This document shows positions 17,578 through 31,925 of a stretch of DNA of 64,000 nt, piece after piece (the stretch's first letter is position 1; every line of letters begins with the position of its first letter). The notes beneath the pieces are model-generated. The model saw nothing but the letters and a program-made list of their open reading frames with translations. It searched no databases and was not told where the DNA came from. Source of the stretch: an uncultured delta proteobacterium. GTDB lineage: Bacteria; Desulfobacterota; Syntrophia; Syntrophales; Smithellaceae. The translations under genes and the position numbers were made by a program. The DNA lies in the NCBI GenBank assembly GCA_963753975.1, contig CAVWEH010000001.1:128001-192000 (forward strand), in the 5' to 3' direction.

Positions 17578-18899
17578 ATGAAAACATCCCCTAACTTTTC
17601 CATTAACTATAATATCCTCTCGGAAAGAGCACTGCAGAACGCCCTGCAAAACGTGCCGGCCTATAAGAGTTGGCGGGCATTTGATCCCGGCGCATCGGCT
17701 TCTATTGACAGGCGTTTTCGTGCGCTGCCGACAATTTCCAAAAAAGACTTAAGAGAACGTACCTGGCGCAATTTTATTCCCGCAGGCATGGATGTAGATA
17801 GCGCACTGAAGACGGGCATAATAGAAATCGTCCAAACGAGCGGCACAACTGCCGAGCAGGTTTTAAATGTTTGGTATCAGTCCTGGTGGGATGCGGCCGA
17901 GGCGGCGTCCTGGCAATACAACATCCATACGGCGGCATTAAAATCTGGGTAAACACCGGGAAGCAATTCTTACCAGTCCCATGAATACCGGCATTTTGGC
18001 TAAAAATGGTTTGCTGACAATGGAGGAACGCTCTTGCGGCCGTTTTCTCTATCTTAATGAAAAAATCAATCCGTCATTATGGGACGATCAACTGTTCGAG
18101 CGCATCATTAGGGAGCTGGAAATCTTTCAACCGGTTGTGTTGGAAGCAAACCCCTCCTATCTGGCCAAAGTCGCCCGCTTCGCTTACAAACATAACCTCA
18201 GTGTCTTTCAGCCGCCGGTGATTATTTTTAGTTATGAAAATCCGGGCATTTTAGCCAGAAAACATATCCGCCAAAGTTTTTCATTCTCCTTTAGTCAGTT
18301 CCTACGGCTCGACCGAAGCGGGATATGTATTAATGGAATGTGAACAGGGGAAGCTCCATCAGGTTTCCGATTCGTGCCGGATCGATATAGAATTCATGCG
18401 TCCGGAATACGGATATCCTCATGTCGGAAGATTGCTGCTGACCACACTGACCAATCCCTGGCGATCATTAGTCAGATTTGATGTGGGCGATCTGGTGCAG
18501 ATCGATCCCACAGGCATTTGTGAATGCGGCCGCAATGACGGATATATCTGTAAGGAAATTGTCGGGCGAACGGCTGATCTCACCTATACAACAGATAATT
18601 ATCCTGTAACCACGGCGATGGTCGAATCCATCATCAGTAAAGTGGAATCTGTTGCCGAATATCAAGTATTGCAAAGTGAAGGTATTTACAATGTCCATAT
18701 AGTTCTGGAGGAAGCTGACGCTGCTTCTCACATGCTTAAAGAGGAAATAATTGAAGGATTATTGCCATTGTATGGACGGGATGCTGTTATCAACGTGCAT
18801 TTTGTAAAGGAGATTGAAACCGAACCATCCGGTAAATATAGATTAACGCGTTCGGACGTGCCGGTGAATATGGAAGAGCTCTTTGGGAAAGGAAACTGA
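17578..18899 (+). CDS. Phenylacetate-CoA ligase (PaaK/CapK)-like adenylate-forming protein (extra bases near 17940 and 18273)
   Basis: Three consecutive ORFs join into 440 codons: LPTISKKDL, QTSGTT, EANPSYL, SSYGSTEAG (shifted frame), LVRFDVGD, GRTAD, SGKYR. Confidence 0.8.
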
Positions 18900-20637: not shown

Positions 20638-20958
20638 ATGAACTATCTGTATTTATTTTTATCAGTTGCTTTTAACGTGGCATCTTATCTGGTTTATAAA
20701 AGCATTGCTCAAAAACAACATGATTTTAGCTGGCAGGTCTTTTTTATCTTTGGCTTGATCCTCGGTGCCATCAATGTTTATTTGTTCATCAAAGCGCTCC
20801 AGAGTATAAATTTAAGCATTGCCTATCCAATATTTTCCGGCGCTTGTCTGGCTTTAATGATGATTTTGTCTCACTTTATTTTTGGAGAAAAGATAAGCGG
20901 CCTTAATATTCTCGGCACGGTTGTTATTTTTGTGGGGATTGTTTTGTTGTCTTACTAA
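20638..20958 (+). CDS. SMR/DMT family small multidrug-type transporter
   Basis: Four TM helices, KALQSINLSIAYP, FGEKIS, GIVLL. Start at GTG 20629 or ATG 20638. Confidence 0.8.
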   Translation: MNYLYLFLSVAFNVASYLVYKSIAQKQHDFSWQVFFIFGLILGAINVYLFIKALQSINLSIAYPIFSGACLALMMILSHFIFGEKISGLNILGTVVIFVGIVLLSY

Positions 20959-20963
20959 TTCTC

Positions 20964-21086
20964 ATACCAATTCGCTTTCTTTGGCTAACTTTGTTGGCAT
21001 CGTCGTCGGCTTCCTCAACGTATGTACAATACGTCTCCGGCGCCTCCTCCTTGCCGCCTCGTTATCCTTTGAAATCGAAATGGTAT
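20964..21086 (+). repeat. Repeat family B copy (MITE/REP-like with terminal inverted repeats)
   Basis: ATACCAATTCG...CGAAATGGTAT termini; internal sequence aligns by eye with 61679-61803. Confidence 0.8.
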
Positions 21087-21090
21087 TGCA

Positions 21091-21684
21091 TCAATCTCCA
21101 CTAGACGTAGTCGGATTACTGCCGCTCCAGTATTTGATAATATTTTTTCTGTGATTGAATAAAATAAGTAGAAATGTTGCGAGAGCGCCGGATATTGCAA
21201 TTAATCTCCAATGCGCGGAATGGGCCTCTCCTAAGGCCAAAACAAAAACCATGAAAAATGAAGCAATAAAAGTAATCCGGCCGATCCCGTAGAGAACGAC
21301 CCAGATTGCCGCGGCAAGGAGAGCCGCCCACGGCGCGATAAGGGCTGTAAAACCTAAATAGTTAGCTACACCTTTACCGCCGCGAAAACCATGAAAGCAA
21401 GGGAAGCTATTTCCCAAAACAAGAAAAAAGCCAGCCCAGGGGAGCAAATGCGTTTTTAAAAAATAGCTCGCTATAACCGCGACCGCCAGAGCCCGGCCGA
21501 TATCCAATAAAAAAACAACCATCGCCCAGATAAATCCTGCCTGGCGGTAAACGTTTGTGGTTCCCGCGTTGCCGCTGAAGCTCAGGCGAGGGTCTTCTTT
21601 ACCGGTTAGTTTAAAAAAAATAATAGCGAAATTTATAGAACCGGCAAGATAAGCAAAAAGATAAATTAAAAATGTTTTTCCCAT
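21091..21684 (-). CDS. plsY: Glycerol-3-phosphate acyltransferase, PlsY family
   Basis: YLAGSINF, SGNAGTTNVYR, FRGGKGVA, HRKNI. Confidence 0.88.
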   Translation of the reverse strand: MGKTFLIYLFAYLAGSINFAIIFFKLTGKEDPRLSFSGNAGTTNVYRQAGFIWAMVVFLLDIGRALAVAVIASYFLKTHLLPWAGFFLVLGNSFPCFHGFRGGKGVANYLGFTALIAPWAALLAAAIWVVLYGIGRITFIASFFMVFVLALGEAHSAHWRLIAISGALATFLLILFNHRKNIIKYWSGSNPTTSSGD

Positions 21685-21687
21685 TGG

Positions 21688-22554
21688 TTAAATTTCTGCC
21701 TTAATCCAATCCGGCGGATGCAGGCGGCCCTGAGTTACGTCCCTCATTTTAATGCCGCTAATGATTTCATAAATAACACCATTTAAATCATAAATCCAGG
21801 CATCAAATATTAGCGGCTCGTGATTAATATCCACCGGCACAATCCGGCCAAGATAACTGCCTTTCTTTTTTGTCTTTTGATAAATAACTCTTCTTTCAAA
21901 ACCTGTGGGAAAGGGGACAATGCCGTTGAAGCGTTGTCCCCAAACACAAGCCGCATGCATTGCCGCATCCAGTGGAAACGGCGAACCAAGCAAATTTTCA
22001 TCGGCCTCGTAATTCCCGCCGGAAAGATAAGCCAAAGCGCCCTCCGGTGAAACTGCTAAATCACCGGTGATGTTTTGATAAGCCGTTCCGAAAGGCACTA
22101 GTTCACGGTAAATCGTGGCCGCAGGTACGCTGATGCATTTTCCATTGAGCTTTTCCACAATCCGAAAAGGAGATGCAGGGCAGGGGGAGGTATCGGCAGT
22201 GGCAAATTCCACACGGGCATGTTCGAGGGCGCGGCTGATTGCGCTTTTTTTTGATTTTATCGAAGTTAAAAGCACGGCGGTAATATTACCATCACCGGCA
22301 TCTTCTATATCGACAAATATCTCTAAGCGCTTTGTCTCCGGGGGAATGATTAAAAAGCGGGGAAAGCGCGCCTTGAACAACCAGTTGATACTCATCTGCG
22401 GGAAATTAAGCTGAACAACATTAGCCAAAGCGATTAATGTTTCCACCGCGGGCAGAATCACCTTTCCTTCGAAATAGTGATCGCGCAAATATGGAGATAT
22501 CTCAATTGCCGAAGTATAGCGGGTTTTTTTATTTATTTGGGGAACGATGTCCAT
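21688..22554 (-). CDS. Stand-alone PKS-type double-hotdog dehydratase
   Basis: YLRDHYFEGKVILPAV (HxxxGxxxxP), FGTAYQ, LDAAMH (catalytic Asp motif). Confidence 0.75.
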   Translation of the reverse strand: MDIVPQINKKTRYTSAIEISPYLRDHYFEGKVILPAVETLIALANVVQLNFPQMSINWLFKARFPRFLIIPPETKRLEIFVDIEDAGDGNITAVLLTSIKSKKSAISRALEHARVEFATADTSPCPASPFRIVEKLNGKCISVPAATIYRELVPFGTAYQNITGDLAVSPEGALAYLSGGNYEADENLLGSPFPLDAAMHAACVWGQRFNGIVPFPTGFERRVIYQKTKKKGSYLGRIVPVDINHEPLIFDAWIYDLNGVIYEIISGIKMRDVTQGRLHPPDWIKAEI

Positions 22555-23012
22555 AGCTGAACCGTTTTAGGATCAACGGCCACGGGTGTGCCCGTCAAAT
22601 TTAAGGCGCAGTGTTTGGTAAAGCCGATACAGATCAGATGTCCCTTTTCCGCGTGGGTGATTACGTAATCGAACTGCAAACGTACCCGCTCCAAATTTAC
22701 CGGCCGTGTGTGAATATACATCAAATCATCATAATACAAAGGCTGATAAAAACTGATGCCCAAATCGAAAATCGGATAAACAAAGCCGCTGGCCTCAATT
22801 TCTTTGTAAGGGTAGGCAAGATCGCGCATCAACGAGGTCCGGCCGAATTCAAAATAACGCAGGTAATTGGAATGATAAACCACTTCCGAGCGATCGGTAT
22901 CAGCGTATAAAGTCCGGTTTTGGGAACGGTGCCAGACAAAGCCGGACGTCCGATCACGCACATACTTTTCATCGTTATTATGAATTTCCGGTTTAAATGG
23001 TTTGGGCCTCAT
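22533..23012 (-). CDS. Acyl-CoA/acyl-ACP thioesterase (YbgC/4HBT family)
   Basis: YADTDRSEVVYHSNYLRYFEFGR, PLYYDD. Confidence 0.88.
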   Translation of the reverse strand: MRPKPFKPEIHNNDEKYVRDRTSGFVWHRSQNRTLYADTDRSEVVYHSNYLRYFEFGRTSLMRDLAYPYKEIEASGFVYPIFDLGISFYQPLYYDDLMYIHTRPVNLERVRLQFDYVITHAEKGHLICIGFTKHCALNLTGTPVAVDPKTVQLWTSFPK

Positions 23013-23013
23013 T

Positions 23014-24279
23014 TTATACTCCCCTGAAAATTACACAGCAATTTGTTCCGCCAAATCCGAAGGCGTTGGAAAGAGCAATTTCGTATTTTTGTTTGCGCGC
23101 GGCATTCGGCACAACATCAATATCGGCAAGCTCCGGATCGGGAAGATGATTAATCGTGGGCAGGATGATGCCCTTTCTCATTCCTTCAATGGTCAACGCG
23201 GCCTCAATAGCAGCCGTTGCTCCCAGAGTATGTCCTAATTGAGATTTATTCGAAGACACGGGAATTTTTTCTATTTTTTTGCCGAAAACATCCCGCAGGC
23301 ATTTTATTTCCGTTTGATCTCCTTTGGGGGTGGAAGTGCCGTGGGCGTTGATATATTGAATATCTTGCGGCTTTAAACCCGCATCTTCAATTGTTTCCCT
23401 CAGCGCTCGTATAATTGTCACAGCGTTAGGGCTGGTGTAATGATGCGCATCCGATGTCCACCCGATACCCAAAACTTCCGCTTTGGGTGTGAGTCCGTAA
23501 ACTTTAATTAATTCTTCCGCTGCGAGAACTATAACGCCTGCGCCTTCAGAAAGAACAAAGCCTTTGCGGTCGATACTAAAAGGACGGGATGCCTGGGCAT
23601 GATCAGCATAGGCGCGATCGTCAGGATGAACTTTGATCGTGGCGTTCATATTGGCAAAGCCGTGAATCAGTTCCGGTAAAATCGGCGCATCAGCGCCGCC
23701 CGCCAGAACAAAATCGCAATCACCGTCCCGAATCATTCTTGCGCCGATGCCGATGGCGTGGTTACCGGAAGCGCAGGCGCCCTGCGGTGAAAAAATAGGG
23801 CCGGTAAATTTTAACAGCATTCCGGCTTTGCCCGAAGGCAGATTCGCGCATAAATTAGGCAGCAAATAGGGACTGACCCGGAGCGGTCCCCGATGTTCCA
23901 AATCGTGCATGGCAACACGAAAGGCGTCCGATCCGTTCAGGGCTGAACCGATAAGGCAAGCCATCCGGGGGGCAATCCGCTCATCAATGGTAATCCCTGA
24001 GTTTTCGAGCGCCTCCTTACAAACAGCCATGGTTAGAATTACAAAAGCGGCATTCCAGTTATAAACTTCTTTAGCATCGGTAAAATCAAGTTCCAGCGGA
24101 TACCAATCTGGAATTTCTCCGACTATGTCGCAAGCCGATTCTACTTTACAGCGCGTCACCTTCCGAAAACCGGCTTCACCCTTGATAGCCCTTTTCCATG
24201 TTTTCTCAAAAGTGGCCCCCAGCGGGGTAGCGGCGCCGTAACCGACAACAAAAACTTTTCTATTCTTAGGGGCTTTCAT
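23014..24279 (-). CDS. fabF: Beta-ketoacyl-ACP synthase (FabF-type)
   Basis: GACASG, NAHGTST, KSQLGH, NAFGFGGTN. Start set at MKAPKN (24279, RBS AAGGA) because the longer ORF runs into a repeat. Confidence 0.9.
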   Translation of the reverse strand: MKAPKNRKVFVVGYGAATPLGATFEKTWKRAIKGEAGFRKVTRCKVESACDIVGEIPDWYPLELDFTDAKEVYNWNAAFVILTMAVCKEALENSGITIDERIAPRMACLIGSALNGSDAFRVAMHDLEHRGPLRVSPYLLPNLCANLPSGKAGMLLKFTGPIFSPQGACASGNHAIGIGARMIRDGDCDFVLAGGADAPILPELIHGFANMNATIKVHPDDRAYADHAQASRPFSIDRKGFVLSEGAGVIVLAAEELIKVYGLTPKAEVLGIGWTSDAHHYTSPNAVTIIRALRETIEDAGLKPQDIQYINAHGTSTPKGDQTEIKCLRDVFGKKIEKIPVSSNKSQLGHTLGATAAIEAALTIEGMRKGIILPTINHLPDPELADIDVVPNAARKQKYEIALSNAFGFGGTNCCVIFRGV

Positions 24280-24301
24280 ATTACGATAATTATCCTTTAT
24301 T

Positions 24302-24618
24302 TGTGAAACTCCAATTCTAATGAAACTCAAATATTATCCCGTTACGGGATGTCGCGTCTTTGAAAATAGCCTTCGGCTCCTTACAGAGGTGCTCCACAAA
24401 CGCAGTGAAGTAATATCTGTAAGTTGTAATGAGACTAAAACTTCAAAAGCAAATAACCTAAAGGTCACTATAGGCGCATTGAAGTTTTTTAGCCGAATTA
24501 TCCAATAGCCGGTGGCTATTGGAAATTATCCCGCGCGCGCAGCTTAGCGGGCGACAACAACCCCGCTAAGCGGAGGGTATAATACCCAAAAGCTTGATTT
24601 GGGTTTTATACCCGTGAT
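24302..24618 (-). repeat. Repeat family A copy (expanded), between the two fabF genes
   Basis: Minus strand starts ATCACGGGTATAAAACCCAAATCAAGC...ATACCCTCCGCTTAGCGGG and ends AATTGGAGTTTCACA, with extra internal hairpins. Confidence 0.8.
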
Positions 24619-25865
24619 CATAGCCTGCGCAAAACCAGACAGGAATTGCATCCGCCGAAACCAAACGCGTTTTTCAATACAAATTCCTGACTCAACTTTC
24701 TCGCGCCTTCGGCGACACAGTCAAGAACAATTCCCGGATCGGGAACATAGTTTATCGTGGGAAGCAAAGTTTCTTTGATCATTCCTTCCATCGCCAGAAT
24801 CGCTTCAACGGCGGAAGATGCGCCCATGGCGTGTCCCATCTGCGATTTATTTGCCGATACCGGAGGAACATTTTTTCCGAAAATGTTGGAGAGGGCATCA
24901 GCTTCCACTTTATCGCCCACTTTTGTCGAAGTGGCATGTGCATTAATGGCGTCTATGTCAGCGGGCCGTAATCCGGCATTGGCAATCGACTCTTTGATGC
25001 ATCTTTGCACTGTTTCCAGTTTGGGCGAAACAAAATGGCTCGCATCGGAAGTCATTGACCAGCCGGCCAATTCTATTTTCGGTTTTAACCCATGCGCTTT
25101 CGCAAATTCTTCAGTTGCCAGAATAATGCAGCCGGCGCCTTCGGAGACGACAAACCCTCTTCTATTCACGGAAAAAGGGCGGCTGGTTTTTTCCGGTGGC
25201 TCTTCCGGCTGTCCCTCTTTCGGGCGGTAAGCGCCGTTCATCGTGGCAAATCCCGCGACAATCGGTTCCACCAAAGGAAAGTCAACGGCGCCGCCGATAA
25301 CCACATCAGCCATACCCCGTTGCAAGAGCATCTCGCCCACGATAAGCGAGGTGATTCCGGTGGCGCACGCCGTTATAGTCGAACAGATTGGGCCTGTTGC
25401 TCCCGTCAGGATAGAAACCTTGCCTCCGACCATATTAATGCACGAATTGGGATTGGTAAAGGGGTGAGGCATCTTGCCTTCTTGAACCATCAGGCGATCA
25501 GCCTGGAGCACAGCGTCCAGGCCACCGACTGCCGTGCTGAAAGTAACCGCCACCCGTGGCGCGATATCCGCGGAAATTACAATTCCGCTTTTTTCCAGAG
25601 CGCGATGCACAACAAGAAGAGCGTATTTAAAGATCGGTGATGTCCAGTGCGCCATTTCCCGCGGCTGTAAAAAAGGATACGGCCGTAAGCCCACCTCCGC
25701 TACTTCACCGGCAACACGCACAGGAAAATCGGCGGTAAGCGGAAATCTGGTCAACTTTCCTATTCCGCAATCTCCTGCGGCCGCGCGCTGCCACTCCGTA
25801 TCCAAATCCGTTCCTAAGGGAGAAACGGCATCATAACCCAATATTAGAGCTTTCTTTGAACTCAT
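24618..25865 (-). CDS. fabF: Beta-ketoacyl-ACP synthase (FabF-type), second paralogue
   Basis: TACATG, NAHATST, KSQMGH, NAFGFGGCN. Confidence 0.9.
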   Translation of the reverse strand: MSSKKALILGYDAVSPLGTDLDTEWQRAAAGDCGIGKLTRFPLTADFPVRVAGEVAEVGLRPYPFLQPREMAHWTSPIFKYALLVVHRALEKSGIVISADIAPRVAVTFSTAVGGLDAVLQADRLMVQEGKMPHPFTNPNSCINMVGGKVSILTGATGPICSTITACATGITSLIVGEMLLQRGMADVVIGGAVDFPLVEPIVAGFATMNGAYRPKEGQPEEPPEKTSRPFSVNRRGFVVSEGAGCIILATEEFAKAHGLKPKIELAGWSMTSDASHFVSPKLETVQRCIKESIANAGLRPADIDAINAHATSTKVGDKVEADALSNIFGKNVPPVSANKSQMGHAMGASSAVEAILAMEGMIKETLLPTINYVPDPGIVLDCVAEGARKLSQEFVLKNAFGFGGCNSCLVLRRL

Positions 25866-25961
25866 AACTTATTTCCTAATAAATATAAAAAAATCCTCTC
25901 CTTAAAGAAGGGGGGAATGATTGTTGATCACAGACGTGTCTATATCAAAGATTATTGGGTA

Positions 25962-26957
25962 TTACCACGGAATAAAACGATACAGCTTGGCGAACATTTC
26001 ATAAACTTCGATCCAGTTTTGTAAATCTTTAGTCGATCGCAAGTGTTCCCGCTTATTGACCATTATCCAGCTCATGTGTGCCGCACCGTCTTTGCAGGTC
26101 GAGCAATCGCGCGTTGCCGATGTGCAGCAGCGGTGAACTGTTTGTAAATCGGAAGCCCAGCGGAAAAAATGAATCAGACGACGGGTTGGCGGCTGTCTGT
26201 GATCCAGAGATTCGGTAACAGACGGGCATTCTTTCCAGCCAAAACGACGTCCCATCATTTTTCCGGTGGTAATAACTTCATGATAGTATTTGCTGGAAAT
26301 TACACTTTGCGGGTATTTATCCAGCATTTCATCCATTTCGGAGCATAAATCTTTGAGTTCGCCTTCGCGCCAGGAAAATCCGTCAACACCTTCATCATTC
26401 GAGAGAAGCTGGAGATGTACTTTTAAGCCGACATCCGCAATTCGTTTGATCACCGGTTCGATTTTTCCTAACTGCTTTGGTGTTATTGTGTAAAGATAGT
26501 ACGTGTAGGGGTCTCCGGCATAATTTTTACTGGAGAGAGCAAAAGTATCGCGTCCGCGCAGAACCTTTTCATCGGCACTTCCGCCCCACAGGGAAATCCC
26601 CACCATCAGGTCGGGAAACCTTTCCCGGGGAACTTTAATCAGGCCGTTGGTGGCGCAATAGGTAGGCAGACGCTTGTAAAAAGCTTCAACGCGATCCATG
26701 CAGAGAGTCGGCTCACCCCCGATCAGAATCGCCAGATTAACGCCGCGCTCTTTTTCTTTATCAATAAAATTTTCCCATTTCCATATGTCCATTTCCTCCG
26801 TCACTTGATGCTCGCCGGAAGAAAAGAAAAAACACCCCTTGCAGCGCAAATTGCAGCGGTTGGTTACATCATATATGGAACTGCGGATGTTAAGATTGGC
26901 AATCCGTTTGTAACGGGCTTGCCAATTCTTATCCAGTAGGGAACTAACAGTTTTCAT
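25962..26957 (-). CDS. Radical SAM protein (paralogue 1)
   Basis: CNLRCKGC, GGEP, ATNG, C-terminal CC-x6-C-x2-C (CCTSATRDCSTC). Confidence 0.9.
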   Translation of the reverse strand: MKTVSSLLDKNWQARYKRIANLNIRSSIYDVTNRCNLRCKGCFFFSSGEHQVTEEMDIWKWENFIDKEKERGVNLAILIGGEPTLCMDRVEAFYKRLPTYCATNGLIKVPRERFPDLMVGISLWGGSADEKVLRGRDTFALSSKNYAGDPYTYYLYTITPKQLGKIEPVIKRIADVGLKVHLQLLSNDEGVDGFSWREGELKDLCSEMDEMLDKYPQSVISSKYYHEVITTGKMMGRRFGWKECPSVTESLDHRQPPTRRLIHFFRWASDLQTVHRCCTSATRDCSTCKDGAAHMSWIMVNKREHLRSTKDLQNWIEVYEMFAKLYRFIPW

Positions 26958-27005
26958 TAACTTTTGTCCTTCTTCAGAAAAATAATATAATGCCCGGCCT
27001 CTTTC

Positions 27006-28094
27006 TTAATTTACAGTTACCTGTGGCGGCGCTACCTGTTCGGTGCAAAGATTTTCCCCCTTTTCATAGTTCATAACCCAGACCGCCAAATAGGTGTCGA
27101 CATAATCAAGCCAGGACTTAAACGAAGCCAGGCTATTGACGTGGCGGTATAGGCGCGCTGTTACGACCGCGGAACCGGCGGCGTAATGACGGCAATCGGC
27201 GCAATCTGTATCCGGCACACAACAGGCAACCGACCTGTCCCAATTAAGGTCGGTCCTGTATTGCCGGAAAGATCTGCCCAGGCCGATATCCTGGGAAGGA
27301 TTCTGGCGGGGATATGAGCAGCCGTAAAGACCGTGCAGACCCTTTTTATGAGTGTGCGCCACGGCATTGTAGACTGAAAAAAGGATATTCTGCGGATATT
27401 CATTCAATAGCGCTAGCATCATTTGCTTTGTTCGTTCGAGAGATTCATCATCATGCCGCAGAGGACCTGCATAACCGACCGGAGAAGAAAAAACATTAAA
27501 AGTTAGTTTACAACCGTGGGCAACAAGATCTTTGGCGACATCATTTACTTCATCGATATTTTCCCGCGTAAAGGTGTAGACAAATACTGCGCGCGGATCA
27601 TTTTTATAATTTTCAATCTGTTTTTTTAAAAGATTTTTCGCTTTTCTGATGCGCAGGCTGGTTTCGTCATTACCCCAGACGGAAATATGTATTTTGTACC
27701 CTACCGATTCCGGGATTTTTTTAAAACCATTGGTAGCAATACTGCCTAGCGGCATTTCCTGATAGCACACATCCAGCAGTTCCGGCACTAAAGACGGCTC
27801 GGCTCCCGCCAAAACTACATAGGTAATACCGCGAGTTTTTTCAGTCTGCATTAGTTTACGCCATGCTTTGGCGTCGCCAATTTCCCGGGCAAACTGCTTA
27901 TCCCCTTCAAAATAATAACAGCCGTCACAACGGATATTACAGCGGTTAGACATGTCATAGGTTGATTCCCGCAGAAAAAAATATTTCCGGACTTTTTCCC
28001 AACGCGCCTTTATCTCCGGCTGGGCTAAAAGTTCAGAAAATTTCGGTTTGGCAGATTCCAGAGAATCTTTATTGTTGAAAGTAGTCATAGACAA
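27006..28094 (-). CDS. Radical SAM protein (paralogue 2)
   Basis: CNIRCDGC, GAEP, ATNG, C-terminal CC-x5-C-x2-C (CCVPDTDCADC). Confidence 0.9.
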   Translation of the reverse strand: MSMTTFNNKDSLESAKPKFSELLAQPEIKARWEKVRKYFFLRESTYDMSNRCNIRCDGCYYFEGDKQFAREIGDAKAWRKLMQTEKTRGITYVVLAGAEPSLVPELLDVCYQEMPLGSIATNGFKKIPESVGYKIHISVWGNDETSLRIRKAKNLLKKQIENYKNDPRAVFVYTFTRENIDEVNDVAKDLVAHGCKLTFNVFSSPVGYAGPLRHDDESLERTKQMMLALLNEYPQNILFSVYNAVAHTHKKGLHGLYGCSYPRQNPSQDIGLGRSFRQYRTDLNWDRSVACCVPDTDCADCRHYAAGSAVVTARLYRHVNSLASFKSWLDYVDTYLAVWVMNYEKGENLCTEQVAPPQVTVN

Positions 28095-28104
28095 TTTCTA
28101 TCGA

Positions 28105-28377
28105 TTAACTTTTCGCGGTAAGTTTTTCTTTGATATAATCGGCTATCAGGCGAATAGTTTTCAATTTTGGATAATCGTCTTCATCAATCACAATTTTGTA
28201 TTCATCCTGCAGTACTAAGGCAATGGTGGCTAAATCCATACTATCAATGCCCAGTTCATCCACCAGGTCCATATCAGCGTTGAATGTTTCTGCCGTAACA
28301 TCTTCCAGCTTAAGTTCTCCAATAATGACTTCGGCTACATGACGTATAATGCCTTTTATATCGAGATTTTCAGGCAT
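28105..28377 (-). CDS. Acyl carrier protein
   Basis: Acidic, 90 aa, LGIDSMD phosphopantetheine site. Confidence 0.92.
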   Translation of the reverse strand: MPENLDIKGIIRHVAEVIIGELKLEDVTAETFNADMDLVDELGIDSMDLATIALVLQDEYKIVIDEDDYPKLKTIRLIADYIKEKLTAKS

Positions 28378-28379
28378 TC

Positions 28380-28778
28380 TTATCCTCCTTCTGCACTTTT
28401 TTTATCTTCTTTTATTTTCTGCGCAATTATTAAACCGCTGCATACGATATTTTCTTTGTTTGCCACTTTAAAAGAAAACAATGTTTCCTCGCCCAATTCT
28501 TCACCGGAGATCGTCAGCGACAAATTTTCTCCTGGTTTTACCGGCTGAGTAAATCTCACTCTTCTCAGCGTGGAAAGTCTAACTTGCTCGTTTCTTTTTT
28601 CGGTATGGCGGATAATTGCCTGTTCGGTCATATGAACCAGAGCTATTCCCGGAAGAATCGGCTCATTGGGAAAATGTCCCACAAACCAAGGCGAATCAGC
28701 CGGCACATATGCTAACGCTTCGATCTCATTTGGTTTATTGGATTTAACCTCTCCCAGCAAATTCCATCGACCTTTCAA
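28380..28778 (-). CDS. FabZ/ApeI-like hotdog dehydratase
   Basis: WFVGHFPNEPILPGI, VRFTQPVKPG. TTG start with GAGG RBS. Confidence 0.82.
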   Translation of the reverse strand: MKGRWNLLGEVKSNKPNEIEALAYVPADSPWFVGHFPNEPILPGIALVHMTEQAIIRHTEKRNEQVRLSTLRRVRFTQPVKPGENLSLTISGEELGEETLFSFKVANKENIVCSGLIIAQKIKEDKKSAEGG

Positions 28779-28890
28779 GAGAATAGACCTCGTTTAGCGC
28801 CGTGCAAAATTTAATTTATTTTGAGAAATATTTCTTTATATCACTAATTATTTTTTAATCAAAATTTTTTATAAAATCAATGATTAATTT

Positions 28891-28925
28891 ACCCCGTTAG
28901 AAAGTAGAAGACTTTCTAACGGGGT
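28891..28925. repeat. Perfect 15-bp stem palindrome (REP-like or terminator)
   Basis: ACCCCGTTAGAAAGT-AGAAG-ACTTTCTAACGGGGT, 20 nt past the deacetylase stop. Confidence 0.75.
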
Positions 28926-28945
28926 TTGCTTTCGGAAAAATATTT

Positions 28946-29758
28946 TTATAAATTATTATTTTCTATGATCATCACTTCTTTGTTTATTAAAACGGAAAGC
29001 GGCACAACTCTAAAACCTCGGGAAATAATTCCGGCCAGAAGAATTTCTATCTCCGCTAAAAAAACGGCATTATCTTCCTTGCTTCGCGCCGGCACGTCGT
29101 GGAGCAGTATAATATCACCGGCTTTTACTTTTTTCAGTATTTTTTGGCCGATGTTTTTTATAAAAAAATTGCCGGCATCAAAGGCGCGGCAACCGAACGT
29201 CACACAATACATTTCCAGTTTGTCAAGAATCGACGAGAGTTTGGGATTGACGATGCCCACCGGCGGCCGGAAAGCCCGCATTTTTATCCCCATTTTTCGC
29301 AAAGCTTCTTGAGTCGCGAAGATTTCCTGGTAAAGAGTATCAAAAGATCTAAGCATCAAAAAGGGATAATGGTGATATGAATGGTTGCCGACAGAATGAC
29401 CGCGGGAAATTATGTCCTTAATGATATCAGGATGGAGAACGGCATTGACACCGGAGATAAAAAAAGTCGCCTGTATTGAATATCTATCAAGCAGATTGAG
29501 AATCTGTATCGTCATCGGTTTTGTAGGGCCATCATCAAAAGTAAGCGCAACCATATTTTCCCGCATGTTGCCGCGGCTGATCACGGGCAGGAAAAAGTTG
29601 GTTTGTGGGAAAAAAGAAGCAAAAAAACACAGAAGAATATAAAAAAAAGCGACGGCCGCCGCCATCAAGGGGTTGACAAAATAAACTAACACGGCGACAG
29701 CCAAAAGAATTATTCCTGTAGCTTCGGCCGGATTCAAGAATGGCAATCTCTTTTTCAT
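28946..29758 (-). CDS. Membrane-anchored polysaccharide deacetylase (CE4/NodB)
   Basis: N-terminal TM segments, LTFDDGP, GNHSYHH, FRPP, IILLHD. Confidence 0.88.
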   Translation of the reverse strand: MKKRLPFLNPAEATGIILLAVAVLVYFVNPLMAAAVAFFYILLCFFASFFPQTNFFLPVISRGNMRENMVALTFDDGPTKPMTIQILNLLDRYSIQATFFISGVNAVLHPDIIKDIISRGHSVGNHSYHHYPFLMLRSFDTLYQEIFATQEALRKMGIKMRAFRPPVGIVNPKLSSILDKLEMYCVTFGCRAFDAGNFFIKNIGQKILKKVKAGDIILLHDVPARSKEDNAVFLAEIEILLAGIISRGFRVVPLSVLINKEVMIIENNNL

Positions 29759-29782
29759 TGATAAACCTTTAAGCAGTTGTCT

Positions 29783-31132
29783 TCATTGAATCAGGTGCTC
29801 CCACAAAGGTCCTGTTAATCCCCGTTCATAGAGTTTGGGTAAAACATGGGTCGCCTTGGCTTCACCGGCGTCGACAAGCCAATTCAAACGACCGTCGGCA
29901 TAAGTTTTCACCGTTTGCATAATTTCCCGGCCGGATATGTGTGGTGATCTATAAAATACGGGTTGCAGGAGACTTTGAGAGGCGGTGATTTGACCTTCCT
30001 TCAGGGCGATATCATACAACGCGGTATGAGGATAGATACGGATGCCGCAAAAAAAGAAAAAGACCGATTTCCCCAGTTCATTCAATCCATTTAATGTTTT
30101 TTGCAGGGTCTGATAGGTTTCACCCGGACCGCCCAGAAGGAAATAATGGGCGATGTGCAGGTCAGCCGAGAGTGCCTGACTATGAGCTCTAAATACATCG
30201 GCGGCGGCAAATGGTTTGCTCAAATTGATGAGCATTAAATCGGACAAAGATTCTGTCCCAAATTCCACATGGGTCAACCCGGCATCCGCCAAACGCTTAT
30301 AATAATCGGCCGGAGGAACGGTGGGTGCAAAAAACCCCCCCCAGGGAATGGATACGCGGGCATCAATAAAGGCCTGAGCAATTTGTCTGCTGTGATCGTG
30401 GCTCGCATTAAAAGCCGAATCAGTAATAAAAATGTATTTGGCGCCGGCATCCTGCAATTTGCGTGCTCTCTGGGCTATTTCCTGCGGCGGGAAAAATCGC
30501 ATCCGGCTGCCTTCGATGTGAGGATAAATGCAGTAGCTGCAGCGAAAAGGGCACCCTCTTTTTGTTTGCAGGTTGAGCATTCCACCGCAGGATAAATAAA
30601 ATTTTGTATGCGAACTTACCGGATTAAAACTTCTATTGATTGGACCATCCCACGGCTCGTAAGTACTGATGGAGGTTTTTTTAGTCACAATGCCGGGAAT
30701 TGATTTTACGTCAGCATTTTTTTGCAGTGCTTCCAAAAGCAGGGGCAATCTTTCGCCCTCGCCGACAATGCCGTAATCTGCATCCAGTGCGTGGATAAAT
30801 TCAACCGGAAAAACGGTGAAACCACTGCCTCCTAAAATCAACTTGGCCTTAGAATTTTTTCTGATTTGACGCACCAAATTCTGATATTCTGCAAGAAAGC
30901 CGCGGCTGTTTATTATATCCAGGTTATCTATATTTCTGATTGATACTCCGACAAAATCGGGTGAAAACTTTCGAATTATCACCCCCAATTCTTCCAGATC
31001 GTTAAATTCATTCAAATCAACAATTTTGGTTTGATAACGTGAATCCAATGAACCGGCGACGTAATCGAGCCCCAGCGGATAAACAGGATACGGAACTCTC
31101 AGAGTGTTTGCCGAGATTAGCAATACTTTCAT
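29783..31132 (-). CDS. Cobalamin-binding radical SAM protein, lipid-biosynthesis-associated type (TIGR04072-like)
   Basis: MKVLLISAN, PYPVYPLGL, GVSIRNIDN, ILGGSGF, GEGE, QTKRGCPFRCSYC, GGPGET, IRIYPHT. Confidence 0.85.
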   Translation of the reverse strand: MKVLLISANTLRVPYPVYPLGLDYVAGSLDSRYQTKIVDLNEFNDLEELGVIIRKFSPDFVGVSIRNIDNLDIINSRGFLAEYQNLVRQIRKNSKAKLILGGSGFTVFPVEFIHALDADYGIVGEGERLPLLLEALQKNADVKSIPGIVTKKTSISTYEPWDGPINRSFNPVSSHTKFYLSCGGMLNLQTKRGCPFRCSYCIYPHIEGSRMRFFPPQEIAQRARKLQDAGAKYIFITDSAFNASHDHSRQIAQAFIDARVSIPWGGFFAPTVPPADYYKRLADAGLTHVEFGTESLSDLMLINLSKPFAAADVFRAHSQALSADLHIAHYFLLGGPGETYQTLQKTLNGLNELGKSVFFFFCGIRIYPHTALYDIALKEGQITASQSLLQPVFYRSPHISGREIMQTVKTYADGRLNWLVDAGEAKATHVLPKLYERGLTGPLWEHLIQ

Positions 31133-31189
31133 AATAGAGGCAAAATGCAAAAAGCGCTATAAGGTTATTATCTTTGCGTAAGCGAAAGC

Positions 31190-31462
31190 TTAAGCCTTTG
31201 GACGCTGATTCGCTAAAATGTGCGTGGCCAATGCACGCACCGATGCAAAAACCTTGGCGCCCAGTTCTTTGCTCTGGATTTTAACGCCATAGTTTTTTTC
31301 AATCATCATTACTAACTCCAGCACATCAATGGAATCAATTCCCGTATCGCCGCCCACAAGCGGAGCATCGTCCTTGATATCCTCCGGTTTAACATCCATC
31401 AATCCCAGTGTTTGAATAATTTTGACTTTAAGTTCAGTGACTAATTTTTCAATTTGGTTCAT
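31190..31462 (-). CDS. Acyl carrier protein (second, aryl-polyene-type signature)
   Basis: PLVGGDTGIDSIDVLELV. Confidence 0.9.
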   Translation of the reverse strand: MNQIEKLVTELKVKIIQTLGLMDVKPEDIKDDAPLVGGDTGIDSIDVLELVMMIEKNYGVKIQSKELGAKVFASVRALATHILANQRPKA

Positions 31463-31505
31463 TTAACACCTCAATGTTATTTGATTTAGCGCCGGTGAGA
31501 GCGCT

Positions 31506-31925
31506 TTAGTTTTTTATTGGGCCGGCTTCTGTTTTTTCCCGCGGCGAAGGTTTAATGATTTTAGCATCATCACCAAGTATTCTTTCTAAAATGATTCGTG
31601 CCGTCCAGCTCGAAAGAGCCTTCATGTATTTAGGGCCGGCAAGATACATACCGTACATAAAAGTAAGCCACGAAATGCCGTAAGTCACCGGTATGCCGAT
31701 AAAACCAATTAAAGGTTCGTTGAGCCTTGCGGCAATCACGCCAAGCACGGGAACTGCCGGTAAACCTATAATATAACTAAAAGCAATCAATAAAATACCG
31801 ATGTATATACGAGTCGATAGTTTTTCTTTAAAAACCCTCAGGTCGGCGTGTTCAGCGATGGCTTTGCGGCAATATTCTTTTTGGGCAAAATACAAGGCTG
31901 TTTTTTTTATTATGTTCACAATCAT
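31506..31925 (-). CDS. Hypothetical membrane protein, first gene of the lipid cluster
   Basis: 139-aa ORF with two hydrophobic segments. Confidence 0.65.
   Translation of the reverse strand: MIVNIIKKTALYFAQKEYCRKAIAEHADLRVFKEKLSTRIYIGILLIAFSYIIGLPAVPVLGVIAARLNEPLIGFIGIPVTYGISWLTFMYGMYLAGPKYMKALSSWTARIILERILGDDAKIIKPSPREKTEAGPIKN

Follow-up and report, generated by a model that had tools for sequence, protein, structure and literature searches.

A seven-gene cassette with a twin pair of radical SAM enzymes in Smithellaceae, a probable source of an unusual membrane-lipid fatty acid

The DNA analysed here (hereafter, the window) comprises 64,000 nucleotides of contig CAVWEH010000001.1 (positions 128,001 to 192,000, forward strand) from the assembly GCA_963753975.1 of an uncultured delta proteobacterium of the family Smithellaceae. 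At positions 21091-31925, it carries 13 open reading frames (ORFs), all on the minus strand and separated by intergenic gaps of -22 to 287 nt (Table 1). Seven of them, namely those for acyl carrier protein 2 (ACP2), the radical S-adenosylmethionine (SAM) enzymes A and B, the ketosynthases KS1 and KS2, a thioesterase (TE) and a dehydratase, are referred to as the cassette, while the genes for the membrane protein, ACP1, the TIGR04072 B12 enzyme, the deacetylase, the ApeI-like dehydratase and PlsY are referred to as the frame. The probable role of the cassette, whose two radical SAM enzymes are uncharacterised, is the synthesis of an unusual acyl chain destined for a membrane lipid. Searches with Pfam and NCBIfam models assigned the domains PP-binding (twice), B12-binding with Radical_SAM, Polysacc_deac_1, FabA/ApeI-like, ketoacyl-synthase (twice), 4HBT, PS-DH and G3P_acyltransf, and together with the ORF calls bore out the original prediction, made from the letters alone, of 13 co-oriented genes of these families. 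One label has to be replaced: the gene called FabZ-like is of the ApeI type, with the His kept in 81/81 homologues and the FabZ acid position variable.

Table 1. Features of the lipid cluster in the window and of related loci on contig C5 of the same genome
Feature	Position	Strand	Remarks
PlsY, divergent (frame)	21091..21684	-	TIGR00023 101.8 bits, below cut-off 137.2
Stand-alone double hot-dog PKS (polyketide synthase)-type dehydratase (cassette)	21688..22554	-	PS-DH; H26, D196 invariant in 63/63
YbgC/FadM-type hot-dog thioesterase (cassette)	22533..23012	-	TIGR00051 79.3 bits vs cut-off 68.7
KS2 (cassette)	23014..24330	-	intact C186-H330-H367; additional invariant C161
Intergenic stretch with genome-dispersed repeat, outside the pathway	24331..24617	.	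68 blastn pieces in own genome, self included
KS1 (cassette)	24618..25865	-	intact C167-H310-H345; additional invariant C142
Radical SAM B (cassette)	25962..26957	-	CxxxCxxC + invariant C244, C277, C278, C285, C288
Radical SAM A (cassette)	27006..28094	-	CxxxCxxC + invariant C259, C291, C292, C298, C301; twitch-like
ACP2 (cassette)	28105..28377	-	PP-binding; Ser motif invariant in 87/87
ApeI-like dehydratase half (frame)	28380..28778	-	PF22818 above cut-off
15-bp hairpin, then AT-rich gap	28891..28925	.	hairpin lies between deacetylase and ApeI-like gene
NodB-type deacetylase, hydrophobic N-terminus (frame)	28946..29758	-	Polysacc_deac_1
B12-binding radical SAM protein, TIGR04072 (frame, optional)	29783..31150	-	389.6 bits vs cut-off 360
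ACP1 (frame), aryl-polyene-type carrier	31190..31462	-	PRK09184 passed
Small membrane protein (frame)	31506..31925	-	no Pfam family
AMP-ligase, ApeP-like hot-dog, FabG, LolA, desaturase-like flavoprotein, ACP, KS, PlsC-type acyltransferase	C5:439-448 kb		
ApeP-like partner	C5:441127-441576		weak PF22817, below cut-off
Two B12/radical SAM genes, KS pairs including chain-length factor (A/A/E), aromatic amino acid lyase, thioesterase, GT2	C5:3-25 kb		
MMPL with methyltransferase, lipid-A-type acyltransferase, BtrH/DUF4872, ABC transporter	C5:3-25 kb		

For comparison of gene order, 20 loci picked from genome searches were combined with the best 80 of 519 confirmed matches in a species collection, the latter labelled mainly Desulfobacterota and Spirochaetota. 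From the 100 mapped rows, 54 with at least 6 kb upstream and at least 7 kb downstream were retained, the window itself, a duplicate (L070), a distant single homologue (L043) and a mis-oriented row (L103) being left out; with flanks of about 10 kb, the counts of distal genes are lower bounds. The order A-B-KS1 is found in 50 of these loci, ACP2-A-B-KS1-KS2-TE in 40 and the unbroken seven-gene block in 32. The cassette order is thus kept in other genomes, as the original prediction implied, across loci of both Desulfobacterota and Spirochaetota and far beyond chance. The complete 13-gene order of the window occurs in only four loci; within the locus, the B12 gene is present in 40, the deacetylase gene in 29 and plsY (within 10 kb) in 24. 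Median identities of ACP2 (69%), A (72%, 97 loci), B (77%, 88 loci), KS1, KS2 and the thioesterase (68%, on par with the ketosynthases) lie within 68-77%, and those of the frame genes within 37-62%; the cassette dehydratase reaches 41%. The best matches to A bear mostly the names Smithella or Smithellaceae, which points to a Smithella-like host.

A natural deletion is found in genome G022 (98% complete), in which the membrane protein, ACP1, B12, deacetylase, ApeI-like and plsY genes follow one another in this order and precisely the seven cassette genes, whose place would be between the ApeI-like gene and plsY, are missing. Genomes G264 and G299 also carry frame genes, without the cassette in the DNA examined and without A in the genome search. 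The deletion in G022 and the survey of gene order show that the window holds a cassette inside a frame. The 13 genes are real, but they form one piece of a larger, scattered pathway rather than a self-contained one. Of the pathway originally proposed, the ACP-bound chain, its radical modification and the glycerolipid end-point were retained, while the view of the 13 genes as one stand-alone, undescribed pathway was given up.

The radical SAM proteins A and B are homologous (28% identity over 298 columns), and in each of them five C-terminal Cys are invariant in 81/81 rows, in addition to the CxxxCxxC motif; the C-terminal Cys are those predicted to hold an auxiliary iron-sulfur cluster. In both proteins, Radical_SAM scores below the Pfam cut-off and no NCBIfam family comes near its cut-off, unnamed radical SAM clusters were the sole Atlas result, and five short loci came from a metagenome scan in which a distant homologue served as query. 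No named family is reached by A and B. The structure model of A (predicted local distance difference test, 87) has its best matches in SkfB, BlsE, viperin, anSME and SuiB (Z 17-19). With the Twitch/SPASM enzymes (SkfB, 6efn; BlsE, 7vob; anSMEcpe, 4k36; SuiB; MoaA; and also Tes, 7tom), the two proteins share the partial-barrel core, CxxxCxxC and a Cys-rich C-terminal extension (Z 14-19), but they are only 13-20% identical to them, lack an NCBIfam family, stand in a carrier-protein context, and comprise two anciently diverged subfamilies encoded side by side. No HemN model occurs among the listed NCBIfam matches of A and B, and HemN ranks 33rd by structure, with 6% identity; in a review, Jaw5 is described as a HemN-like cyclopropanase with a two-SAM HemN-like domain (PMC13459092).

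The A+B pair is present in 23 of 41 relatives and in 31 of 401 sampled genomes of the phylum; a 32nd genome (G074) has one distant single copy. In a tree built by a quick method, A and B fall into separate clades, and B groups with proteins of other contexts (Shimodaira-Hasegawa-like approximate likelihood ratio test, SH-aLRT, 99). Among these are a TubC-docking/thioesterase/radical SAM fusion (P0228), Burkholderia proteins encoded with a thioesterase, a PaaA-like diiron protein and a PaaI hot-dog, and Alteromonas proteins encoded with PaaA-like and MaoC proteins; by database names, B homologues occur in three cultured species, Desulfogranum mediterraneum (P0271), Desulfosarcina widdelii (P0309) and Desulfofustis limnaeus (P0324). 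In further members of the family, the protein is joined to an AMP-binding domain (P0268), or the gene has ACP/TauD on one side and a nonribosomal peptide synthetase (NRPS) gene on the other. These carrier and thioester contexts suggest that thioester-bound substrates are a trait of the A/B family, with L043 and L089 as exceptions. In aerobes, a recurring unit of a PaaA-like diiron gene, a B-like radical SAM gene and a hot-dog or acyl-AMP-ligase-like gene was observed on plasmids of Alteromonas and Burkholderia (L160:19180-21535, L161:13278-16643, L165:1601-6240), and no published description of it was found. The Alteromonas plasmid homologue was considered as a functional lead and set aside, as its gene is one of a unit of three, around which the annotation shows no NRPS-PKS genes for 20 kb.

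Both ketosynthases are intact, as had been claimed, the Cys-His-His triad being invariant in 75/75 homologues of KS1 and 64/64 homologues of KS2. The two proteins form a sister clade (SH-aLRT 100) near housekeeping FabF, apart from the anammox and frame ketosynthases, and have in common an additional invariant Cys that is not found in nine other aligned KS proteins. The only dead KS subunit of the genome (A/A/E for C/H/H) is encoded at C5:22313-23626. The homologues of KS2 align from residue 18, and its true start is likely the ATG near 24279. The presence of paired ketosynthases and paired radical SAM enzymes suggests either heterodimers or two successive extend-and-modify rounds; prediction of an A:B complex returned a score of 0.00 with controls that were not folded, and is evidence neither way. 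Two carriers and two ketosynthases would also suit a Tes/Mss-like route, with A and B coupling the tails of two chains into a membrane-spanning or macrocyclic lipid, and Tes, which acts on lipids, has broadly the same fold (7tom, Z 14.4). It ranks only ninth by structure, however, A and B are about 130-150 residues shorter, and with the Tes model NF045702 they reach 20-29 bits (cut-off 450) in an alignment confined to the core, so that we consider this joining very improbable. C-C coupling, named among the chemistries of the original prediction, found no support in its Tes-type form.

Genes that flank the cluster in other genomes sit on contig C5 in this one. As originally stated, neither FabG nor FabD is present within the cluster; FabG lies within 10 kb in 25 of the 54 loci, one FabD is encoded at C4:238 kb, and the pieces of the pathway are spread over three loci of the genome. 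The literature describes the aryl polyene lipid (APEL) as a glycerol-phosphate-GalNAc lipid in which a plain chain accompanies the aryl polyene and a conjugated C26:5 chain (bioRxiv 10.1101/2020.12.19.423268). With the APEL pathway of Xenorhabdus doucetiae and E. coli CFT073 (apeA-R), the three loci share several ACPs, a KS with a chain-length factor (CLF), an ApeI/ApeP-type pair, FabG, an aromatic amino acid lyase and an AMP-ligase (a possible aromatic starter), GT2, lipid-A- and PlsC-type acyltransferases, MMPL/RND and LolA. The APEL core set (KS, CLF, ACPs, ApeI/ApeP, ketoreductase, RND/MMPL) is complete at the level of the genome and not within the window, with an ApeP match below the Pfam cut-off. 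Compared with the main text on APEL, the genome has four extra ACPs, several radical SAM enzymes, the twin KS/radical SAM cassette and a FakA-FakB/PlsY route. The frame genes thus resemble those of the ape cluster, whose product is a glycerolipid, and the ApeI-like protein is probably one half of a heteromeric dehydratase with the ApeP-like partner on C5.

PlsY, called dedicated in the original prediction, is the single PF02660 gene of the genome and no second copy. Motif 1, the GGKG loop, H178 and N181 are kept, while the motif-2 His is replaced by Asn; the assignments of motif 1, motif 2 and the catalytic His follow what we take to be the usual definitions. Neither the genome nor any of the 41 relatives yielded a PlsX. 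The genome also encodes a PlsB-like protein of 876 aa (495 bits, below the cut-off of 610), a putative enzyme that can cover housekeeping acylation. At C5:15702-17426, a fusion of Dak2, FakA-middle and DegV domains (FakA-FakB type) is encoded, which scores below the FakA and YloV cut-offs; its FakA ATP/Mg motif is present, and a Cys-His-His triad is kept in all nine distinct copies examined. This triad matches the catalytic residues of FakA (PMC9136124), and FakA/B can feed PlsY without PlsX (PMC13400652). The fusion shares with the FakA/FakB-PlsY system of Bacillota (PDB 7w7h, 7rm7; PMC9136124) the Dak2 ATP site, the triad, the DegV domain and the PlsY partner, but it is a single polypeptide, from a Gram-negative lineage without PlsX, and belongs to a biosynthetic island instead of having a scavenging role. 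This kinase fusion could supply the acyl-phosphate for PlsY.

The distribution of these genes is consistent with such a link. PlsY is present in 25 of the 41 relatives, including 22 of the 23 with A: both occur in 22, A only in one (85% complete), PlsY only in three and neither in 15; two of the three with PlsY only have contig ends inside the cassette, and the third is G022. The kinase fusion is found in 28 of the relatives, including all 25 with PlsY. In the set of 401 genomes, 34 have it, namely all 31 with A+B (11 families), G264, G299 and one partial match, and in 17 of the 31 it lies within 30 kb of A.

Taken together, the window would be part of an anaerobic assembly line, distributed over three loci, for a glycerolipid of the aryl polyene lipid type. 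The chain would grow on ACP2 through KS1 and KS2; the cassette has a dehydratase of its own for this, whereas FabG and FabD would come from outside the cluster. A and B would modify the ACP2-bound chain, most likely in an oxidation that needs no oxygen (a desaturation or the closing of a ring) and in which the auxiliary iron-sulfur cluster would take up the electron. The thioesterase, whose D38, D40 and H47 are invariant in 66/66 homologues, would free the acid, the FakA-FakB fusion would convert it to the acyl-phosphate, and PlsY would put the acyl group on glycerol-3-phosphate. As for aryl polyene lipids, a second chain, a sugar and the export functions would come from frame genes, with the B12 enzyme as an optional tailoring step. 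While the genes, their residues, order and co-occurrence and the absence of PlsX are observations, the reactions, their order and the product are deduced from them. That a radically modified chain is released, phosphorylated and placed on glycerol-3-phosphate within an aryl-polyene-type lipid is the most likely of the readings, at about even odds of being true. Given that route, oxidative chemistry without oxygen by A and B is a tentative assignment, somewhat short of even. More speculative still, and rather doubtful, is the fullest version, in which A and B represent a new carrier-dependent radical SAM family alternating with two duplicated, Cys-lined ketosynthases (A with one, B with the other) and building a new type of oxygen-independently desaturated or cyclised fatty acid, which would be handed to the membrane by a private relay of thioesterase, single-chain kinase and PlsY in hundreds of sulfate-reducing, syntrophic and spirochaete species. 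No published account of the cassette, the A/B family or the kinase/PlsY route in such clusters was found in the literature searched, which left out most subscription journals.

Several observations weigh against this proposal. No function is on record for any member of the A/B family, the best structural matches are no more than 13-20% identical, and the relatives L043 and L089 lie outside lipid clusters. Of 29 PlsY copies, 28 have Asn at the position of the motif-2 His; the C-terminus of PlsY also differs, and the gene is near the cassette in fewer than half of the well-flanked loci. The co-occurrence of A, PlsY and the kinase may reflect one mobile island, the related genomes not being independent of each other. 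Moreover, the kinase fusion and PlsY persist without the cassette in G022 and G299 (in the DNA of G264, the fusion only); they are therefore frame genes, and the fatty acid that they load may be an ordinary one; in aryl polyene lipids a plain C14/C16 chain does occupy such a position (bioRxiv 10.1101/2020.12.19.423268).

The last two points would fit the same lipid with other wiring, in which an LpxL-like or PlsC-like acyltransferase takes the chain straight from ACP2 and attaches it to the sugar or at sn-2, the thioesterase has an editing role only, and the lysophosphatidate scaffold receives an ordinary or scavenged fatty acid by way of the kinase and PlsY. Both types of acyltransferase are present in the frame, and in Xenorhabdus, ApeD and ApeJ have been proposed to move the special chains from ACPs, C14/C16 being the remaining chain. 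On the other hand, a separate ACP-KS-acyltransferase triplet (14, 12 and 15 of the 54 loci) fits the sn-2 chain, the PlsB-like gene could already make ordinary lysophosphatidate, the thioesterase is as conserved as the ketosynthases, and the frame has a second one. Direct transfer is unlikely, yet it is the main rival of release by the thioesterase. The cassette's own carrier and thioesterase, its separability from the frame and the NRPS/PKS-type contexts of the B relatives would also be compatible with a small released acid, signal or antibiotic-like, that merely travels with the lipid island. This is decidedly improbable, as all 31 cassette genomes carry the frame kinase and the cassette is inserted in the frame operon with no transporter or regulator of its own.

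The B12 enzyme passes the TIGR04072 model, as expected from the original prediction. Orthologues with at least 46% identity occur in 23 of the 401 genomes, all with A+B, and the enzyme is probably optional because eight of the 31 cassette genomes have no match to it (four candidates scored per genome). Methylation is the commonest activity of the B12-radical SAM class and, of the chemistries proposed originally, is plausible for this enzyme only. Similar type II fatty acid synthase/radical SAM clusters were reported from deltaproteobacteria in 2009, and Desulfotalea, which has such a cluster, gave no ladderanes (PMC2649909); the anammox clusters (Kuenenia kuste3603-3608, kuste3352-3335) and those of Desulfotalea psychrophila have in common with the present genes a TIGR04072 B12 enzyme beside ACP/FabF, the deacetylase, a phytoene-desaturase-like gene, MMPL and GT2. 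One subunit of the anammox FabF pair is dead (bioRxiv 10.64898/2026.05.19.726425), whereas KS1 and KS2 are both active by their residues; the ring-forming ladderane enzymes are still called unknown in a 2026 review (PMC13459092), and non-anammox 'ladderane' clusters are described as expressed, with function unknown (PMC9902471). Of the ladderane-candidate set, the ACP, FabZ, FabF and B12 radical SAM types are in the window; contig C5 carries the desaturase-like gene in this genome, while 15 of the 54 loci have it no more than 10 kb away.

The anammox-type sample consisted of five Planctomycetota genomes with TIGR04072, four of them with two hydrazine synthase alpha genes. In these five, no full-length A/B member and no kinase fusion was found: the best match to A/B, a lone 340-aa protein outside a lipid cluster, reached 94.6 bits over profile positions 40-199/353, while true members score 355-439 bits. 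Their B12 proteins are 35% identical to that of the window. The link to ladderane islands drawn in the original prediction thus holds for the frame and, in the five genomes examined, does not extend to the A/B pair. Cyclobutane chains of the ladderane kind have been proposed as the product of the anammox clusters; their production here could draw on the passed TIGR04072 model, on the overlap in frame gene types and on the best solved-structure match of the ApeI-like protein (41 bits), which is presumably to anammox FabZ entries. Nevertheless, it is most unlikely in view of the missing A/B and kinase genes, the low identity of the B12 enzyme, the separate clade and intact state of KS1 and KS2, and the negative result with Desulfotalea. 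Two further TIGR04072 observations were made. The highest scores of all (590-624 bits), which exceed those of the anammox-type genomes, belong to aryl-polyene-like clusters of small-genome bacteria in the phylum of G432 (L134-L137), not shown to be anammox, and the present genome has a second TIGR04072-like B12/radical SAM gene at C5:272482-273756 (297 bits, below the cut-off), outside the lipid clusters.

In ladderane-type clusters, the step still to be solved is the radical modification of fatty chains on their carriers, and the strongly conserved A/B pair, with 519 genome matches in the species collection, can be studied apart from the anammox problem, in cultured sulfate reducers. The kinase link names the intermediates to seek, a free acid and then an acyl-phosphate, and a natural deletion is available for comparison. 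Any product found would stand for a C-H functionalisation new to anaerobic biochemistry, and Smithellaceae and anaerobes related to them might be traced by it as a biomarker.

Among the other frame genes, those for the membrane protein and the deacetylase form a single 425-aa ORF in two other genomes (L154, L155), and the metal and catalytic residues of the deacetylase are invariant in 42/42 homologues. The membrane protein also hit a model for an effector from Legionella weakly (15.7 bits vs cut-off 150), which was dismissed as noise. The catalytic residue of ACP1, like that of ACP2, is invariant among its homologues. A ketosynthase fusion of about 720 aa directly follows ACP1 in 24 of the 54 loci, and in several Smithellaceae loci (L091:4760-5356, L044:16733-17323) a FabA-type gene, absent from the window, lies directly upstream of the membrane protein. 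The hairpin between the deacetylase and ApeI-like genes is a possible border between two transcription units. Promoter and terminator scans gave values close to the shuffled background (25 vs 21.0 and 23 vs 16.1, respectively). The best holder among RNA runs shared 0.05 of the sequence words, and in two runs, contigs with a similarity of mostly 85-95% reach into 23 and 26 of the 30 bins; these contigs come from relatives, as contigs only and without a silent-stretch control, and were not used as evidence of expression. A second short intergenic repeat, with 21 blastn pieces in the genome (self included), lies at 20951-21095, and both it and the repeat at 24331-24617 drew high depth in the mapping of these contigs.

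Elsewhere in the genome, the housekeeping fatty-acid operon at C1:46677-49172 (L025) appears eroded, with a 32-codon fabD remnant, acpP, fabF and genes that we take to be yceD-like and rpmF-like, while plsX, fabH and fabG are missing there. A small cluster at C4:230190-239024 (L027), near which the sole intact FabD is encoded, consists of genes for a phosphopantetheinyl transferase, an acyltransferase, a KS, FabA-like, FabG and FabH-like proteins and an acyl-CoA dehydrogenase. Finally, at lower coordinates of the window than the cluster, three successive ORFs without a Pfam match lie on the plus strand at 17578-18899, which resemble pieces of one phenylacetate-CoA-ligase-type gene, possibly frameshifted.

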